Shown in pieces: positions 5,007-38,964 of a DNA stretch of 42,114 bases. The stretch's first letter is position 1. Every line of letters starts with the position of its first letter. The notes beneath the pieces were generated by a model, which saw nothing but the letters and a program-made list of their open reading frames with translations, searched no databases and was not told where the DNA came from. The translations under genes were made by a program, and so were the position numbers. Source of the stretch: a virus (taxonomy: Duplodnaviria; Heunggongvirae; Uroviricota; Caudoviricetes); the IMG/VR virus record IMGVR_UViG_2875703104_000005. One strand, written 5' to 3'.

Positions 5007-5086
5007 AACTTGTTACCTCGGTCTGTTACCGTTGAGGTAATAATTATGCGTATTTGGTTTGATGTCAATAGATATGAGTTAAAAAA

Positions 5087-5103
5087 ATTACCCATTAGGT
5101 AAT
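5087..5103. promoter_or_regulatory. Operator-like palindrome ATTACC-CATTA-GGTAAT (leftward early promoter region)
   Basis: Perfect 6-5-6 inverted repeat between the repressor-gene terminator and the leftward operon start. Confidence 0.55.
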
Positions 5104-5798: not shown

Positions 5799-5863
5799 AT
5801 TACCCAACAGGTAAATGCACCTCATGGGTAACTATCCTTGATTTTTGTTACCTTATGGGTGAA
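5799..5863. promoter_or_regulatory. Three-site operator cluster between repressor and Cro-like genes
   Basis: ATTACC-CAACA-GGTAAA (5799-5815), degenerate TGCACC-TCATG-GGTAAC (5816-5832), GTTACC-TTATG-GGTGAA (5847-5863). The last lies in the spacer of a plausible rightward promoter (TTGTTA 5845-5850, TATTAT 5868-5873). Confidence 0.6.
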
Positions 5864-15253: not shown

Positions 15254-15416
15254 GAACTGGAAGCAATGAGTTATGCCTTCCGTGGCTGTACTGGTTTACA
15301 GCATGAAGTCATCGCAATGGCGTCCTGCTGTAAAAAGGGCGGTGATAGTCCTTCAAGGGAAACCATCACCGCCAAGCCCCTGGAACTTCTGGCATCACGG
15401 TCCTTAGGCGTGATTC

Positions 15417-15493
15417 TGGCGTGGCATGCAGGATTCGAACCTGCGACCAACCGCTTAGAAGGCGGTTGCTCTGTCCAACTGAGCTAATGCCAC
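15417..15493 (-). tRNA. tRNA-Arg (anticodon UCU), phage-borne
   Basis: 77-nt cloverleaf read directly: acceptor GTGGCAT/ATGCCAC, D-arm GCTC AGTTGGACA GAGC, anticodon loop CTTCTAA, T-arm GCAGG TTCGAAT CCTGC, discriminator G, CCA. Closely resembles enterobacterial argU-type tRNA. Confidence 0.8.
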
Positions 15494-32488: not shown

Positions 32489-32836
32489 TTAGTGGCGGGA
32501 GAAATAGTACACACGGAAATAAGTTACCGTCATAATCAACCGTGTCGATATCGATACGGTTGATGTTTCAATACTTTCGCGGATTACAGGGCAGACTTTG
32601 TTTGGCTGAATGCTTGAAAGCCAAGCCGCAAACTTACGAAAGGCAAGGCATATCATTAACTGTTTACCGCCAGCAGAAGGTATTTCGATTTCCGAAATAC
32701 CTTTGACAAATCTCTGTTTTAATTTAACAAATTGAGCAGCCCAAACCATACCCATGCCTTCAACGATAGGTTTCATTGGGGTGTACGGTTCGCCGTTGTG
32801 ATTGACGACATAAAGCTCTGCGCCGTGTAATGGCAC
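32489..32836 (-). pseudogene. Probable truncated remnant of a phage regulatory / anti-repressor-like gene
   Basis: 115-aa ORF whose N-terminal two thirds look like a conserved phage domain and whose C-terminus is low-complexity; abuts the moron and the inverted-repeat leader. Confidence 0.3.
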
Positions 32837-33000: not shown

Positions 33001-33090
33001 TTACACCGCACTCCTCTTGTGCCATAGTAATCGGGCACTGGCAAAATCCAGTGCCGGGATTGGCGTCCCGGATTACTAAAAGGCGCATTC

Positions 33091-33110
33091 ACCGCGCAAG
33101 CGGTTTTTTT
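33091..33110 (+). terminator. Leader terminator / attenuator upstream of the Bro-N anti-repressor
   Basis: Stem ACCGC/GCGGT with GCAA loop and a 7-T run, about 100 nt downstream of the operator-like site. Confidence 0.5.
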
Positions 33111-33267
33111 ATGCGTATAGCACGGCCACATTCGTATTATGGTGGGCTGTGTGGGGGCACCGAAAGGTGCGCCGGGTCCTTTTAGCCGGTTACGCCAACC
33201 CTGCACAGTTCACCACCAACCGATTGGCGTCGGTAGTGGTGATTAACCAGACTAAAAGGTAACCACT

Positions 33268-33963
33268 ATGACAGCTACAAAAAGCACGTCCATTTTTTCT
33301 TTCGAATCTCAAGCCGATATACGGGTAATCGTCATTAATGGTGAGCCATGGTTTATCGCTTCAGATGTTTGTCGGGCTATAGGCATAGCAAACCATCGAG
33401 ATGCTGTTCGAAAACTTGATGATGATGAGAAGGGCGTCGCTTCAACCGACACCCCTGGCGGTGAGCAAGAATCGATCATTATCTCCGAGTCAGGCCTCTA
33501 CACACTGATCCTCCGCTGCCGCGATGCGGTGACACCAGGCACTATCCCATACCGCTTTCGTAAATGGGTTACAGGTGAGGTTCTTCCTCAGATCCGCCGC
33601 ACCGGAAGTTACATTAAAAACTCGCTCCCGCAGGAAGAACGCATAAAGATGGTTGCCGACCAGGTAGCCAACGCCACGGCGTCAGCAGTAATGCAGGCGA
33701 TGAAGATAGAGAACAAAACCTACAGTGCCCCGCTGAAGCCCGGCTACCGCAGCCTGATTCATTCGCCGTCGGGTGTTCTCGGCCTGACGGAGAACTCACT
33801 GCTGATGAATCTGCTGAACCAGTTACAGGAAGACGGGCACGACGTATCGGGCGCGGCGGCGGAACTGACCACCATGTTCTGCTACATCGTCGGTGTGAGC
33901 AAATGCCTGCGTGATATCCAGACGCACGCGGAGTACATCAACGACAAGGCAGGGTTCTTCTGA
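33268..33963 (+). CDS. Anti-repressor, Bro-N N-terminal domain with shared C-terminal domain
   Basis: 231 aa; Bro-N pattern (IRVIVINGEPWFIASDVCRAIG ... ESGLYTLILRCR); C-terminal 80 aa identical to the C-terminus of the 35074-35730 product. Confidence 0.7.
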   Translation: MTATKSTSIFSFESQADIRVIVINGEPWFIASDVCRAIGIANHRDAVRKLDDDEKGVASTDTPGGEQESIIISESGLYTLILRCRDAVTPGTIPYRFRKWVTGEVLPQIRRTGSYIKNSLPQEERIKMVADQVANATASAVMQAMKIENKTYSAPLKPGYRSLIHSPSGVLGLTENSLLMNLLNQLQEDGHDVSGAAAELTTMFCYIVGVSKCLRDIQTHAEYINDKAGFF

Positions 33964-34109: not shown

Positions 34110-34742
34110 ATGAGAACAAATACAACAAGAAAAGCGATGCCATACATTATCCCAGAAGCAGATTTCGATAGAAAACTGAACATGTCTGAGAAGAACACTA
34201 GTCACACCGAAAGCTACTTAGCGAAAGGTGTGGTTGATTTCGTTCTTCCGGGATTCACAACACCTTATGGTTATCGCCTTGTAAAATCTTGTAATGGCGA
34301 TCATTACAGAATGATTACTACCAGCGATACTCCAGAAACGGTGTATGCGGTTAAGTTAATCTTTCGGGAAGATATCGTCGAAGCCAAAAGAACATGTACG
34401 CAGATCATGGTATGGCGTACGCCTAATGTTATTCATGACCGTGCTGTTCATGGTTTGCCTCAGATTTTTTTTCAGTTCTTCCTAGAGCAATATGCGATCG
34501 TTGTATCTGATGAGCAACAAACAATCGATGGGAGAAGATTCTGGGAAAGAATGATTTCTTGGGCTATAAACACCCCAGGATATAATGTATACGTTTCAGA
34601 TGGCTCTGAAGAAGATAGACCTCTTAGCTTCATGACATCATGGGATGATTTCTATAGCCAGTGGGCTGATTTCTGTTGGGGCAGTGATAAAGATGTGCAT
34701 ACCCACAGACTACTGGTTATAAGCAAAGATAAACTGCATTAA
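34110..34742 (+). CDS. Hypothetical moron protein with its own operator-like site and terminator
   Basis: 210 aa; GGAGG RBS; operator-like palindrome 59 bp upstream; strong terminator immediately downstream; lower GC than the core genome. Confidence 0.5.
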   Translation: MRTNTTRKAMPYIIPEADFDRKLNMSEKNTSHTESYLAKGVVDFVLPGFTTPYGYRLVKSCNGDHYRMITTSDTPETVYAVKLIFREDIVEAKRTCTQIMVWRTPNVIHDRAVHGLPQIFFQFFLEQYAIVVSDEQQTIDGRRFWERMISWAINTPGYNVYVSDGSEEDRPLSFMTSWDDFYSQWADFCWGSDKDVHTHRLLVISKDKLH

Positions 34743-34770: not shown

Positions 34771-34840
34771 GGACGAAACAAAAGTCAGTGCTACACTCAT
34801 TGACGCCACATTGAGGTGGCTTATAGATGGAAATTTCACA

Positions 34841-35002
34841 ATGAAAAAAGCATTTGCTGCACTGTTCGTTTTGTTGTCTCTGGTAGCTTCAACTCAGGCC
34901 TTTGCCGGTCGTTGTCAGCACGACAGCGATACTGCCGCTGACGGCTCCCGCTGCGGTGGGCGTTCTGCGGATTCCCGCCCAGGCGGCGGTGGCATTCGTT
35001 AA
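34841..35002 (+). CDS. Small secreted Gly/Arg/Cys-rich peptide (53 aa)
   Basis: Signal-peptide-like N-terminus MKKAFAALFVLLSLVASTQAFA; weak RBS, so tentative. Confidence 0.3.
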   Translation: MKKAFAALFVLLSLVASTQAFAGRCQHDSDTAADGSRCGGRSADSRPGGGGIR

Positions 35003-35047: not shown

Positions 35048-35316
35048 TTTTGCACGTCCCTGTGCCGCCGCCGTCAGAAGAACCCTGCCTTGTCGTTGAT
35101 GTACTCCGCGTGGGTCTGGATATCACGCAGGCATTTGCTCACACCGACGATGTAGCAGAACATGGTGGTCAGCTCCGCCGCCGCGCCCGATACGTCGTGC
35201 CCGTCTTCCTGTAACTGGTTCAGCAGATTCATCAGCAGTGAGTTCTCCGTCAGGCCGAGAACACCCGACGGCGAGTGAATCAGACTGCGGTAGCCGGGCT
35301 TCAGTGGGGCACTGTA
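35048..35316. repeat. Inverted repeat, anti-repressor C-terminal domain, right arm
   Basis: Reverse complement of 33721-33990 with about two mismatches. Confidence 0.8.
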
Positions 35317-35730
35317 TTCTTTTTTGTCTTCCAGCTTGATCGCCTCCATAATGGCGGGCATGAAGCCTGACAAGACCTTCTCCACCTTTGTTTCTTGTTG
35401 TCTTAAACGTTTCTCGCATTCAATGAAGTATCGGCGTATCTGGCGGCCTTTTTCGTTGCGCTCGACCATCGCAGTTTCTTTGGCCGTATCGAGGGTGAGG
35501 TGATAGTCTTTGCTACGGCGATCGCCTCCTCGACCTTTGATTTCCCGATTTGGGGAAACCAAAATATAGTCCTGATTTTCAACGAAACCATATTCAGCAA
35601 TGCGTTCTGTAATCCACGATGCAAAGCGTTTACCTACCCCAAGAAAAGTATGTAAATCGCGAGCATTAACGAGAAGAGTGGTTTCGTTGGCGATAGTGCC
35701 GTTGAATACGGGGATGAGTTGAGCGTTCAT
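35074..35730 (-). CDS. Anti-repressor, AntA-type N-terminal domain with shared C-terminal domain
   Basis: 218 aa; AntA-like N-terminus (LIPVFNGTIANETTLLVNARDLHTFLGVGKRFASWI); C-terminal 80 aa identical to the Bro-N paralog; GGAG RBS. Confidence 0.7.
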   Translation of the reverse strand: MNAQLIPVFNGTIANETTLLVNARDLHTFLGVGKRFASWITERIAEYGFVENQDYILVSPNREIKGRGGDRRSKDYHLTLDTAKETAMVERNEKGRQIRRYFIECEKRLRQQETKVEKVLSGFMPAIMEAIKLEDKKEYSAPLKPGYRSLIHSPSGVLGLTENSLLMNLLNQLQEDGHDVSGAAAELTTMFCYIVGVSKCLRDIQTHAEYINDKAGFF

Positions 35731-35888
35731 GATGGCGTCTCCACTTAGCGAATTACATCACCACCGCTGAGACCAATCAGATGGTGGTGAACTGAACGGA
35801 GTTGGTCTTACCGGCCTAAGTGGTACCGGCGTCCTTTCGGACCCCCATTCAGCCCACCATAATTCTGGCATGACTGTGCTATACGCAT

Positions 35889-35910
35889 AAAAAAACCACG
35901 TCTGGCGTGG
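35889..35910 (-). terminator. Leader terminator / attenuator upstream of the AntA-type anti-repressor
   Basis: Stem CCACG/CGTGG with a 7-T run at the equivalent leader position; stem sequence differs from the left arm but pairing is preserved. Confidence 0.5.
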
Positions 35911-36000
35911 TATGCGCCACTTAGTAATCCGGGAGACCAATCCCGGCACTGGATTTTGCCAGTGCCCGATTACTATGGCACAAGAGGAGTGCGGTGTAAA

Positions 36001-36017: not shown

Positions 36018-36047
36018 TATAAGCACTCCACTTGGTAATTACAAACC

Positions 36048-36320
36048 TTATCTGGTTTGTTTTCGTAATTGTTCGGCACAATAGTCGAGATGTGTTTGCA
36101 GATCCCGCATAGACATCTGTGAGCTGGTGACGTAGTTAATCAGTGCAGTCAGTTCGGCAAGTGGACCATCGACATTAAATCCATCCTTATCGAGATCCCG
36201 GAGTAATTTCATCAAGTGCGATCCCTCCACCAGTGACCTGACGCCTCCCGGCGTGTGAATCCTTTCGGTAAATCCCTCTTCCAGTGGATAGTGATACTGC
36301 TGCATCTTAATCTTCTCCAT
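36048..36320 (-). CDS. Small anti-repressor-like protein behind a LexA box
   Basis: 90 aa; homologous to the shared C-terminal domain of the two large anti-repressors (PL--G----IH-P-GV ... ELT ... RD-QTH--Y spacing conserved); consensus LexA box 8 bp upstream of its ATG. Confidence 0.6.
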   Translation of the reverse strand: MEKIKMQQYHYPLEEGFTERIHTPGGVRSLVEGSHLMKLLRDLDKDGFNVDGPLAELTALINYVTSSQMSMRDLQTHLDYCAEQLRKQTR

Positions 36321-36327
36321 GCAATAA

Positions 36328-36343
36328 CTGTATATTTATACAG
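36328..36343 (-). promoter_or_regulatory. LexA box (SOS operator)
   Basis: CTGTATATTTATACAG with flanking A/T matches CTGT-N8-ACAG; 8 bp upstream of the ATG of the 36048-36320 minus-strand gene. Confidence 0.75.
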
Positions 36344-36381
36344 TAGCAAATAATTTGTTTGCTATCCAGCACGTTTTGAAA

Positions 36382-36398
36382 ATTACCTGAAAGGTAAT
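36382..36398. promoter_or_regulatory. Operator-like palindrome ATTACC-TGAAA-GGTAAT between the LexA box and the tailspike gene
   Basis: Perfect half-sites, 104 bp upstream of the tailspike ATG and 39 bp from the LexA box. Confidence 0.5.
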
Positions 36399-36501
36399 AT
36401 CTATTCATATTCACAGTCTCTCTATCCATATATGGTTTTTCGGGTAATAGAATAACCAGATATGCGGCGCAACGGGTGCTGCGACTATCTGGAGATTTAA
36501 C

Positions 36502-38964
36502 ATGACGGTCTCAACCGAAGTTGACCACAACGAATACACAGGTAACGGCGTTACGACATCATTTCCGTATACCTTCCGTATTTTCAAAAAATCCGACCTG
36601 GTTGTTCAGGTGTCTGACCTTAACGGTAACGTTACAAAACTAGTGCTGGATGCTGGTTATACGGTAACAGGGGCGGGAACTTATAGTGGCGGTGCAGTGG
36701 TTCTTCCGTCGCCGCTTGCTGCTGGCTGGCGAATCACGATAGAGCGTGTGCTTGATGTGGTGCAGGAGACTGATCTTCGCAATCAGGGAAAATTTTTCCC
36801 CGAAGTTCATGAGGATGCATTTGACTACCTGACGATGCTGATCCAGCGATGTTTTGGGTGGTTCAGACGTGCATTGATGAAACCATCTTTGCTTGCAAAA
36901 TATTACGATGCAAAGCAAAACAGAATATCTAACCTTGCCGATCCATCACTTGAGCAGGACGCTGTAAATAATCGCTCAATGCGTAATTATGTCGATGCTG
37001 CAATCGCCGGGGTTGTTGGTGGTTTTGGTTGGTTTATTCAGTATGGTTCTGGAGCGGTATACAGAACACTCCAGGATAAGATGCGTGATGGTGTCAGCAT
37101 TAAGGATTTTGGAGCTCAAAATGGAATCTTAAATGATAACAAGGAGGCTTTTACAAAATCATTACATTCGTTTAGCAGTGTTTTTGTTCCGGAAGGGGTA
37201 TTCAATACATCTTTAGTTTCTCTTTCACGTTGTGGCTTGTACGGAACAGGTGGGGGAACGATAAAACAGTATGACAGAGATGGTAATCATCTGGTTTTTA
37301 ACATGCCCGATGGTGGCATGCTTAGTACGCTAACAATTATGGGAAATAAATCAGATGATAGTGTGCAGGGACACCAGGTGTCATTTTCAGGTGGCCATGA
37401 TGTATCGGTTAAAAATATCAGATTTACAAATACGCGAGGAACAGGATTTAGCTTGATCGCTTATCCGAATAATGGTATTCCGTCAGGTTACATTGTTAGA
37501 GATATAAGAGGAGAGTATTTAGGGTTCGCAAATAATAAAAAAGCAGGTTGTGTGCTTTTTGATTCATCGCAAAATACGCTAATTGATGGTGTGATAGCCA
37601 GAAATTATCCTCAGTTTGGTGCAGTGGAACTTAAAACAGCAGCAAAATATAACATTGTCAGCAATGTTATTGGTGAAGAGTGTCAGCACGTTGTTTACAA
37701 TGGAACTGAGACGGAAACTGCCCCAACGAATAATATCATTAGCAGTGTAATGGCTAACAACCCAAAATACGCCGCAGTAGTTGTTGGCAAGGGGACTGGT
37801 AACCTGATTTCGAATGTGCTGGTTGATTACTCTGAATCGGACGCAAAGCAGGCGCACGGAGTCACCGTTCAGGGAAATAATAATATTGCCAGTAATATTC
37901 TAATGACTGGGTGTGATGGGAAAAATGAATCAGGAGATCTGCAGACATCTACAACCATTCGTTTCTTAGATGCTGCACGCAGTAATTATGCGTCAATATT
38001 CCCCATGTATAGTTCTTCCGGCGTGGTTACCTTCGAGGAAGGGTGTATCAGGAACTTTGTTGAAATTAAACATCCGGGTGACAGAAATAATATTCTGAGT
38101 TCTGCATCAGCGGTGACTGGTATTTCCAGTATAGACGGCACTACAAATAGCAATGTTGTTCACGTCCCTGCGCTTGGTCAGTACGTTGGGACTATGTCAG
38201 GGCGTTTTGAATGGTGGGTTAAATATTTTAACCTTGCTAACCAGACGCTTGTTTCTGCAGATAAATTCAGAATGCTTGCTGAAGGCGATGTATCTCTGGC
38301 TGTGGGAGGCGGTATAAGTTCGCAATTGAAATTATTCAATAGTGATAATACTAAAGGCACTATGTCGCTAATAAATGGAAATATTCGAATATCTACTGGA
38401 AATTCAGAATATATACAGTTTTCTGATTCAGCCATGACACCATCGACAACGAATACTTATTCTCTTGGGTTGGCTGGTCGTGCATGGTCGGGGGGATTTA
38501 CCCAGTCAGCGTTTACGGTGCTGTCCGATGCGCGTTTCAAGACTGCTCCAGAGGTTATTGATGAGAAAATACTGGACGCATGGGAAAGAGTGGAATGGGT
38601 TTCATACCAGTACCTTGACAGGATCGAAGTGAAAGGTAAAGACGGAGCAAGATGGCACTTTGGTGCAGTTGCGCAGCATGTTATCAGTGTATTTCAGAAT
38701 GAAGGCATAGATGTGTCACGACTGGCATTTATCTGTTATGACAAGTGGAATGAGACCCCGGCAGAATACAGGGATGTGACGGAAGAAGAGCATTCTGCAG
38801 GAGTTTACCCACTTATACAGACAAAGGTTCTGGTACGCGAAGCCGTCGAGGCTGGTGAATGTTACGGTATCCGTTATGAAGAGGCTCTGATTCTGGAATC
38901 TGCGATGATGAGACGCAGGGTTAAAAAGCTGGAAGAGCAAGTTTTGCAATTAACAGGGAATTGA
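36502..38964 (+). CDS. Tailspike / tail fibre with C-terminal intramolecular chaperone (S74-like) domain
   Basis: 820 aa; conserved tail-fibre N-terminus (YTGNGVTTSFPYTF), central beta-helix-like repeats (low-GC), C-terminal SDARFK ... autoproteolytic chaperone motif. Confidence 0.75.
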   Translation: MTVSTEVDHNEYTGNGVTTSFPYTFRIFKKSDLVVQVSDLNGNVTKLVLDAGYTVTGAGTYSGGAVVLPSPLAAGWRITIERVLDVVQETDLRNQGKFFPEVHEDAFDYLTMLIQRCFGWFRRALMKPSLLAKYYDAKQNRISNLADPSLEQDAVNNRSMRNYVDAAIAGVVGGFGWFIQYGSGAVYRTLQDKMRDGVSIKDFGAQNGILNDNKEAFTKSLHSFSSVFVPEGVFNTSLVSLSRCGLYGTGGGTIKQYDRDGNHLVFNMPDGGMLSTLTIMGNKSDDSVQGHQVSFSGGHDVSVKNIRFTNTRGTGFSLIAYPNNGIPSGYIVRDIRGEYLGFANNKKAGCVLFDSSQNTLIDGVIARNYPQFGAVELKTAAKYNIVSNVIGEECQHVVYNGTETETAPTNNIISSVMANNPKYAAVVVGKGTGNLISNVLVDYSESDAKQAHGVTVQGNNNIASNILMTGCDGKNESGDLQTSTTIRFLDAARSNYASIFPMYSSSGVVTFEEGCIRNFVEIKHPGDRNNILSSASAVTGISSIDGTTNSNVVHVPALGQYVGTMSGRFEWWVKYFNLANQTLVSADKFRMLAEGDVSLAVGGGISSQLKLFNSDNTKGTMSLINGNIRISTGNSEYIQFSDSAMTPSTTNTYSLGLAGRAWSGGFTQSAFTVLSDARFKTAPEVIDEKILDAWERVEWVSYQYLDRIEVKGKDGARWHFGAVAQHVISVFQNEGIDVSRLAFICYDKWNETPAEYRDVTEEEHSAGVYPLIQTKVLVREAVEAGECYGIRYEEALILESAMMRRRVKKLEEQVLQLTGN

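Follow-up and report, generated by a model that had tools for sequence, protein, structure and literature searches.

A putative LexA-controlled small anti-repressor in a phiV10-like prophage of Escherichia coli, and its probable orthology with the Rep/Ant switch of Salmonella phage SPC32H

The window analyzed here (the whole stretch of 42,114 nucleotides in the IMG/VR record IMGVR_UViG_2875703104_000005) is an Escherichia coli prophage, a phiV10/epsilon15-like podophage of the genus Uetakevirus. Its ant gene, which encodes a small anti-repressor, is divergent from the tailspike gene and lies about 31 kb from rep, the gene of the immunity repressor, outside the immunity region; the same order is found in the Salmonella phage SPC32H. 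At the DNA level, the ant region is 89-94% identical to those of the Escherichia phages phiv142-3, HEMP4, vB_EcoP_ZX5 (ZX5 below), TL-2011b, and phiV10, all of them members of Uetakevirus, and the region from ant to the tailspike gene shares about 92-94% identity with phiV10, phiv142-3, and ZX5. The window also contains two genes for large anti-repressors, each with a P1 immI-like RNA module, and several palindromes resembling operators (Table 1).

Table 1. Features of the ant and rep regions, in coordinates of the window
Feature	Position	Strand	Description and basis
rep, immunity repressor, 194 aa	5160-5744	-	DNA-binding domain (DBD), middle dimerization domain, and C-terminal tetramerization/Ant-binding domain, by homology to SPC32H Rep
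Operator-like palindrome pair	5025-5041 and 5087-5103		Separated by 62 bp; close behind rep, at the probable leftward early promoter
Operator-like palindrome	5799-5815		Intergenic, between rep and a cro-like gene
Second immI-like RNA module	33022-33220	+	c4-a1b1, IsrK-like RNA, C4; Rfam
Large anti-repressor, 231 aa	33268-33963	+	Bro-N N-domain (Pfam PF02498, E 2.3e-21) and Ant-like C-terminal domain
Large anti-repressor, 218 aa	35074-35730	-	AntA N-domain (Pfam PF08346, E 3.6e-27) and Ant-like C-terminal domain; PHROG 377 'anti-repressor Ant'
P1 immI-like RNA module	35780-35978	-	c4-a1b1 targets, IsrK-like RNA, C4 antisense RNA; follows ant immediately, in the same orientation; Rfam
Terminator-like site of this module (IsrK)	35911-35895	-	
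Promoter-like site of this module	36000-35972	-	
ant, small anti-repressor, 85 aa (MQQYHYPLEE...)	36048-36305	-	Homology to SPC32H Ant; probable start from the alignment of relatives
Shine-Dalgarno GGAG	36315-36318	-	9 nt before the ATG at 36305; kept in 9 of 9 aligned phages
LexA (SOS) box	36326-36345	-	Minus strand reads TACTGTATAAATATACAGTT; core CTGT-N8-ACAG at 36328-36343
Putative ant promoter	36340-36368	-	-35 TGGATA (36368-36363), 17-nt spacer, -10 TACTGT (36345-36340); inferred
Probable Rep operator	36382-36398		Perfect palindrome ATTACCTGAAAGGTAAT between ant and the tailspike gene; conserved in 9 of 9 phages
Tailspike gene	36502-38964	+	

The open reading frame of ant, taken mechanically, spans 36048-36320 on the minus strand and encodes 90 aa, which is the size given in the preliminary description, together with a LexA box 8 bp upstream. 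This frame owes its length to a one-nucleotide insertion, shared with 21 other related loci, that puts the ATG at 36320 in frame with Ant; that ATG, which most relatives have in another frame, overlaps the conserved Shine-Dalgarno sequence. We aligned the start region of nine phages (the window, phiV10, phiv142-3, SPC32H, SPC32N, epsilon15, Tyrion, BUCT554, and BUCT711). Since the relatives conserve the ATG at 36305, this is probably the real start; the protein would then have 85 aa, with the box 22 nt upstream of its start codon (7 nt from the mechanical start), so the box itself stands as first described and the size and spacing do not.

Ant shares 88% identity over 83 aa with the Ant protein of SPC32H (SPC32H_020), and it matches chain E of PDB entry 5D50 ('Anti-repressor protein'; E 6e-47) and PHROG 450 (E 8e-48). 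The primary studies of the SPC32H Rep/Ant/LexA system, with the structures 5D50 and 5D4Z, are those of Kim and Ryu (2013, J Virol 87:11775) and of Kim and colleagues (2016, PNAS 113:E2480). No Pfam family model matched Ant, and no match to DinI was found in this search; a match to DUF724 was discarded as spurious (17 bits, with a cut-off of 38.4). The protein is 97.7-98.8% identical to its counterparts in phiV10, phiv142-3, and ZX5, and a tblastn search of the phage collection with the 85-aa sequence returned 35 matches, all of them Uetakevirus-like, including SPC32H and its fellow Salmonella phage SPC32N, whose records label the homologue 'ant: anti-repressor protein'. Nearly all of the small Ant homologues (n = 148) are stand-alone proteins of 85-86 aa.

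At the LexA box, whose core on the plus strand reads CTGTATATTTATACAG, 18 of the 20 bases agree with the E. coli LexA consensus TACTGTATATATATACAGTA. No other site in the window has three or fewer mismatches from this consensus, and none of 100 shuffles gave such a site. The bare pattern CTGT-N8-ACAG carries little weight by itself, because three such sites occur in the window where 0.61 would be expected, and as many turn up in 3 of 100 shuffles; the other two, at 15286 and 19828, were rejected as LexA sites, having G+C-rich spacers and more than three mismatches from the 20-nt consensus. The box aligns with that of SPC32H, at the homologous position upstream of ant.

We examined conservation of the box in 95 Ant-encoding loci: the window, the eight named phages, six loci from genomes of other genera (Citrobacter, Erwinia, Superficieibacter, Pseudocitrobacter, and Scandinavium) found with a single protein query, and 80 IMG/VR contigs. 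Of these loci, 91 have CTGT-N8-ACAG in the corresponding place, 19-22 nt upstream of the ATG, a count that is dominated by one lineage because the IMG/VR matches are mostly near-identical E. coli prophages, the informative diversity being about 15 loci of other genera. The 91 box-bearing loci represent at least eight genera and have at least nine different N8 spacers, with the arms unchanged; of the four exceptions, two have ATGT for CTGT, one is rearranged, and one is SPC32N. In the alignment, SPC32N and SPC32H are one base apart in the box, a C to A change in the ACAG arm. In 2013, Kim and Ryu reportedly attributed constitutive expression of Ant, and the constitutively lytic behavior of SPC32N, to one mutated base in a LexA site that overlaps the ant promoter, and the change seen here fits that mutation. 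Invariant arms around a drifting spacer indicate that the arms are under selection for LexA binding.

The putative promoter of ant was chosen among pairings made by eye; TGGATA-17-TACTGT was retained because its -35 block is conserved and its geometry is that of promoter p95 of coliphage 186. Eight of the 9 aligned phages share the block GCTGGATAG. The proposed -10, which is weak, coincides with the opening hexamer of the LexA box, so that the box would overlap the promoter, and a scan with the consensus called no sigma-70 promoter at the box. The annotated -10 of p95 is also TACTGT and also begins a LexA box, and the proposed ant promoter has equal geometry if TACTGT is its -10; the box of 186, TACTGTATGTTTATACAGTA, differs little in sequence from that of SPC32H. 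TATAAA, within the box, was tried as a -10 and set aside: it is a good match in the window but is not conserved in the relatives.

Operator-like motifs (ATTACC-N5-GGTAAT) occur 16 times in the window (1.09 expected). The epsilon15 counterpart of the palindrome between ant and the tailspike gene is annotated 'protein_bind repressor' (a predicted annotation), and epsilon15 also has 'repressor' sites annotated at the place equivalent to the pair downstream of rep; SPC32H has ATTACC-N5-GGTAAT palindromes at like positions. An IHF site is annotated in the ant-tailspike intergenic region of epsilon15.

The features of this intergenic region bear on an alternative reading, in which the box is a conserved relic or serves the control of the tailspike gene, and induction among these E. 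coli phages comes mainly from spontaneous events or from the anti-repressors under C4 RNA, independently of SOS. The palindrome resembling a Rep operator and the annotated epsilon15 IHF site share the region with the box, no strong promoter was called there, and lysogens of ZX5, whose Rep is identical to that of the window, release about 1e7 PFU/mL spontaneously (PMC9782041). Stochastic firing of SOS would, however, equally give spontaneous release; the box is 158 nt from the tailspike ATG but only 22 nt from the ant start, its arms have stayed invariant across genera while the spacer drifted, and a single change within it separates SPC32N from SPC32H. We consider this alternative very unlikely, and prefer control of ant by LexA.

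The Rep repressor aligns with SPC32H Rep over its full length (residues 1-190) at 42% identity, with 53% in the DBD, 34% in the middle domain, and 48% in the C-terminal domain. It matches chain A of PDB entry 5D50 (E 4e-42) and the C-terminal fragment 5D4Z (E 4e-20); its C-terminal half is the part that aligns to 5D4Z, a dimerization and tetramerization module. Repressors 100% identical to Rep occur in phiV10, phiv142-3, ZX5, and a dozen other E. coli phages; when the ZX5 repressor was overexpressed, free phage disappeared and the transcripts of lysis genes fell by more than 99.9% (PMC9782041). The preliminary description credited Rep with two HTH domains and no S24 peptidase module. Pfam indeed reports HTH_3 at residues 106-147 and a weaker HTH-like match at 21-61, but the second HTH corresponds to the middle dimerization domain, as the SPC32H structure shows (PMC9986798); the lack of the peptidase holds. 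In that structure the C-terminal part is a p53-like tetramerization domain, and this domain (CAD) mediates both tetramerization and Ant binding (PMC9986798); two aromatic residues at the tetramer interface of SPC32H Rep, F187 and F190 (PMC9986798), correspond to Y181 and F184 in the window.

Peptidase_S24 was not found in Rep in a Pfam search even at E 0.01, and the sequence contains neither an Ala-Gly nor a Cys-Gly dipeptide, nor any cysteine; Rep thus differs from repressors of the lambda CI/LexA type, lacking both the S24 peptidase domain and an Ala-Gly/Cys-Gly site. These observations speak against the idea that Rep is inactivated by RecA-stimulated self-cleavage at a non-canonical site, with Ant as an accessory, for which the one favorable point is the general prevalence of the mechanism among temperate phages. 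The alignment of Rep over its whole length to SPC32H Rep, whose C-terminus is a p53-like tetramerization domain and no peptidase (PMC9986798), and the finding that cleavage is not the outcome in the Salmonella systems (PMC7380047), leave self-cleavage extremely improbable in our view.

Taken together, the window very probably carries an orthologue of the SPC32H Rep/Ant/LexA anti-repression switch, and the mechanism worked out there very probably applies here. In a lysogen, Rep would hold the lytic promoters off, by analogy with SPC32H as a tetramer on ATTACC-N5-GGTAAT operators, while host LexA on the SOS box, overlapping the ant promoter, would keep ant silent. DNA damage would activate RecA, LexA would cleave itself, and ant would be transcribed; the 85-aa Ant would then bind the C-terminal tetramerization domain of Rep, converting the tetramer to dimers that bind DNA poorly, so that the lytic genes would be derepressed with Rep uncleaved. 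In systems of the SPC32H type, LexA self-cleavage permits expression of the anti-repressor, which inhibits the repressor by protein-protein contact, and in the Salmonella members repressor cleavage is not the outcome (PMC7380047). SPC32H Ant, itself a tetramer (PMC9638917), binds Rep and breaks the Rep tetramer, with no cleavage of Rep on SOS (PMC9638917, PMC9986798, PMC7380047); this anti-repression is also covered in a preprint (bioRxiv 10.1101/2025.11.27.690993).

The likeness to SPC32H extends from the genus to an Ant of equal length and 88% identity, the position of the box, the divergence of ant from the tailspike gene, and a Rep of the same three-domain layout without S24. The differences are that the Rep of the window is of the phiV10 sequence type, that the host is E. 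coli, and that the window has the one-nucleotide insertion upstream of the ant start. Ant (86-88%) is conserved to a much greater degree than Rep, which it presumably targets (48% in the C-terminal domain and 42% in the whole protein), so the binding of this Ant to this Rep is a prediction from homology. The binding of LexA to the box is likewise predicted by homology. The expectation of the preliminary description that induction proceeds by anti-repressor binding rather than by cleavage is supported, through homology, by the identities of the two proteins to Ant and Rep of SPC32H.

The small Ant aligns with the C-terminal ~85 aa of both large anti-repressors, as had been claimed: 41% identity (E 6e-18) with the AntA-type protein and 44% (E 1e-17) with the Bro-N-type protein. 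The last ~80 residues are identical between the two large proteins, and their N-domains differ. A C4 and an isrK element lie directly upstream of each large gene. In Rfam, the minus-strand module scored 67.7 bits for isrK (gathering cut-off 50) and 61.2 for C4 (gathering 45), with c4-a1b1 at 39.9, below its gathering cut-off of 46.7; the plus-strand module scored 77.9 for isrK and 77.7 for C4, both above gathering, with c4-a1b1 at 45.1, again below 46.7. Over 350 nt the modules share 86% identity, and both have a promoter-like site of their own. About 70 nt separate the ant stop codon from the start of the minus-strand module. Since a scan found no terminator-like site between ant and the IsrK terminator, read-through from the LexA-controlled promoter into the C4 module is possible.

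The Bro-N anti-repressor is 100% identical to ORF4 of ZX5, whose overexpression lowered lysogens from 1e9 to 1e6, a reduction of lysogeny of about 1000-fold (PMC9782041). In the stretch of ZX5 that we examined there is one immI-type module, whereas the window has two, the AntA and the Bro-N versions. In 81 of the 95 loci, a C4-type module and a large protein with an Ant-like C-terminal domain lie within 2.5 kb of ant, and across this set the N-domain of the large protein near ant is Bro-N in 66 and AntA in 14. The large anti-repressors with their IsrK/C4 modules distinguish the window from SPC32H and epsilon15, in which module and large paralogue are absent near ant.

The paralogues also suggest another route for Ant, namely that it forms hetero-oligomers with the large anti-repressors and modulates them, and that these in turn inactivate Rep (compare the truncated forms of Tum that modulate the induction of 186). 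Homology over nearly the whole length of Ant, the tetrameric state of SPC32H Ant (PMC9638917), the location of ant just ahead of one large gene in the same orientation, and the ability of the Bro-N protein, as ZX5 ORF4, to reduce lysogeny alone (PMC9782041) would all be in keeping with this. Yet SPC32H and epsilon15 lack a large paralogue near ant, and Ant alone inactivates Rep there; the Ant of the window is 88% identical to that of SPC32H, and an identity of about 40% between Ant and the large C-terminal domains argues little for mixed oligomers. Action through the paralogues therefore seems unlikely, and direct binding of Ant to Rep remains the preferred reading. Because two more anti-repressors have the same C-terminal domain, derepression in this phage may have routes other than Ant.

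We propose, tentatively and with more doubt than confidence, that a single Rep-binding domain is placed under two controls in this phage, LexA and SOS for the stand-alone Ant and separate IsrK/C4 modules for the C-terminus of the large proteins, whose Bro-N or AntA N-domains would be swappable, that the LexA-controlled ant promoter reads into one of the modules, and that three inputs converge on the C-terminal domain of Rep. Two C4 modules with different RNA specificities could form a layered immunity and anti-immunity system. The immI locus of P1/P7 (C4 antisense RNA, icd, ant) and IsrK-anrP-antQ of Gifsy-1 (PMC4825925) are the appropriate comparison for the large anti-repressors; the comparison does not extend to the small ant under LexA, and what sets the large proteins of the window apart is an SPC32H-Ant-like C-terminal domain. 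In the literature covered, we found no description of an Ant domain arranged under both LexA and C4 control, and this reuse of the domain under antisense-RNA control is the only part of the system that looks under-described.

The preliminary description named 186 Tum and the Gifsy prophages as precedents, which is apt as an analogy of function and does not extend to homology. The logic proposed here is that of 186, where the LexA box extends over the -10 of the Tum promoter and Tum binds an uncleaved repressor. Tum, however, has 146 aa with a DinI-like half (PMC3121763), whereas Ant has 85 aa without a DinI part; BLASTP detected no similarity between Ant and Tum (E 0.25), and none was found between Rep and 186 CI. 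GfoA, GftA, and GfhA of Gifsy-1, -2, and -3 are small LexA-controlled anti-repressors encoded outside the immunity region, as ant is, and they bind uncleaved repressors (Lemire et al., 2011; PMC3121763). In the Gifsy prophages these genes come after a dinI homologue within a LexA operon, whereas ant is the first gene after its box, with no dinI-like gene between, and the Gifsy repressors are DicA/RacR-like proteins of about 136 aa that form A2B2 complexes, with a weak HTH match to Rep (E 3e-4). Ant gave no alignment with Gifsy-1 STM2621.1n, a small ORF downstream of the dinI homologue that we assumed to be the anti-repressor, and neither phage 186 nor Gifsy-1, both present in the phage collection, was among the 35 tblastn matches of Ant. 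By sequence comparison, the anti-repressors of 186 and the Gifsy prophages are best regarded as functional analogues and not homologues, and the precise precedent is the Ant/Rep pair of SPC32H.

The switch is already known from SPC32H, by genetics, biochemistry, and a Rep-Ant crystal structure, since the system of the window is the probable orthologue of one solved genetically and structurally; the window adds nothing to it. Its practical value lies in an annotation gap. In all eight RefSeq rows examined (of 534 records), ant is labelled 'hypothetical protein', and phiV10, phiv142-3, and ZX5 give their small ant only this label. For this E. coli lineage, the lysis-lysogeny switch has been the subject of a single study, on ZX5, which overlooked the small ant; the paper mentions neither this gene, nor LexA, nor SPC32H (PMC9782041). 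The extra C4-RNA-controlled anti-repressors that share the Ant domain are the part that might repay more study. ant together with its LexA box is found in at least 307 IMG/VR viral contigs and in 531 of 5,426 complete E. coli genomes (~10%), and a prophage of this kind would therefore be predictable, in about a tenth of complete E. coli genomes, as SOS-inducible through an anti-repressor, which is relevant to the triggering of prophage induction by antibiotics.

A palindrome of the form ATTACC-N5-GGTAAT occurs 16 times in the window when up to two mismatches are allowed, against 1.09 copies expected, a number that was reached in none of 100 shuffles. Two pairs of them (5025/5087 and 8086/8148) have exactly the same spacing of 62 bp. 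The copies are placed before transcription units, in agreement with the sites to which the epsilon15 record assigns binding of a "repressor". These palindromes are probably the operators of the immunity repressor, Rep, and the 62-bp pairs may fit the binding of a Rep tetramer.

One perfect copy (36382-36398) lies in the intergenic region that separates the tailspike gene from ant, the small LexA-controlled anti-repressor gene; the inferred -35 element of ant follows 14 bp downstream of it. All nine aligned phages keep this copy, although identity between their repressors falls as low as 42%. Because of this position and conservation, control by Rep may also extend to one or both of the tailspike and ant promoters.

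Features of the window discussed in this section
Feature	Position	Strand	Family or source
ATTACC-N5-GGTAAT copies	5025, 5087, 5799, 6184, 8086, 8148, 12651, 12669
ATTACC-N5-GGTAAT copies	15815, 27838, 32983, 34035, 36001, 36382, 37271, 39380
tRNA-Arg gene, anticodon TCT	15417-15493	-	
115-aa ORF	32489-32836	-	PHROGs 524 and 14366
P1 immI-like RNA module (c4-a1b1 targets, IsrK-like RNA, C4 antisense RNA)	33022-33220	+	Rfam
Large anti-repressor, Bro-N type	33268-33963	+	
210-aa protein, PHROG without assigned function	34110-34742	+	PHROG 1349
Small protein, signal-peptide-like start	34835-35002	+	PHROG 14503, "membrane associated protein"
Large anti-repressor, AntA type	35074-35730	-	
P1 immI-like RNA module (c4-a1b1 targets, IsrK-like RNA, C4 antisense RNA)	35780-35978	-	Rfam
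Tailspike gene	36502-38964	+	

Each of the two immI-like RNA modules, which are 86% identical to each other and in both of which the isrK and C4 matches exceed the Rfam gathering thresholds, is directly followed on its 3′ side by a large anti-repressor gene. The specificities of the two C4 RNAs may differ, since the changes between the modules in one stem-loop of the C4 regions look compensatory. The large anti-repressors themselves are identical over their C-terminal ∼80 aa, which are Ant-like, whereas their N-domains (Bro-N and AntA) are unrelated. Counted over 95 related loci, the Ant-like C-terminal domain of these proteins was found near ant in 81, with a Bro-N domain in 66 and an AntA domain in 14; judged from these sequences, the exchanged part is the N-domain. 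ORF4 of phage ZX5, whose anti-repressor activity is backed by overexpression evidence (PMC9782041), is 100% identical to the Bro-N protein of the window.

The 115-aa ORF that adjoins the plus-strand immI module matches two "anti-repressor Ant" families (phrog_524, E 7e-40; phrog_14366, E 2.5e-48) in their N-terminal part only, and looks like a truncated remnant of a fourth anti-repressor. The PHROG 1349 and PHROG 14503 genes, placed between the large anti-repressor genes, look like moron cargo. Like the window, SPC32H carries a tRNA-Arg gene; its annotated place is between the terminase and portal genes, and its relative strand agrees with that in the window.

Among the 5,426 complete E. coli genomes in RefSeq, 531 carry the region that contains ant, its LexA box and the intergenic sequence (36040-36510). 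The ant gene is labelled "hypothetical protein" in eight out of eight E. coli RefSeq records among the matches listed, and likewise in the phiV10, phiv142-3, and ZX5 records. The N-terminal region of the neighbouring tailspike is common to phiV10, epsilon15, and SPC32H; beyond it the protein varies among relatives, as indicated by differing annotations and partial DNA coverage. The variation is the usual exchange of host-range cassettes, here directly adjoining the conserved ant-LexA region.
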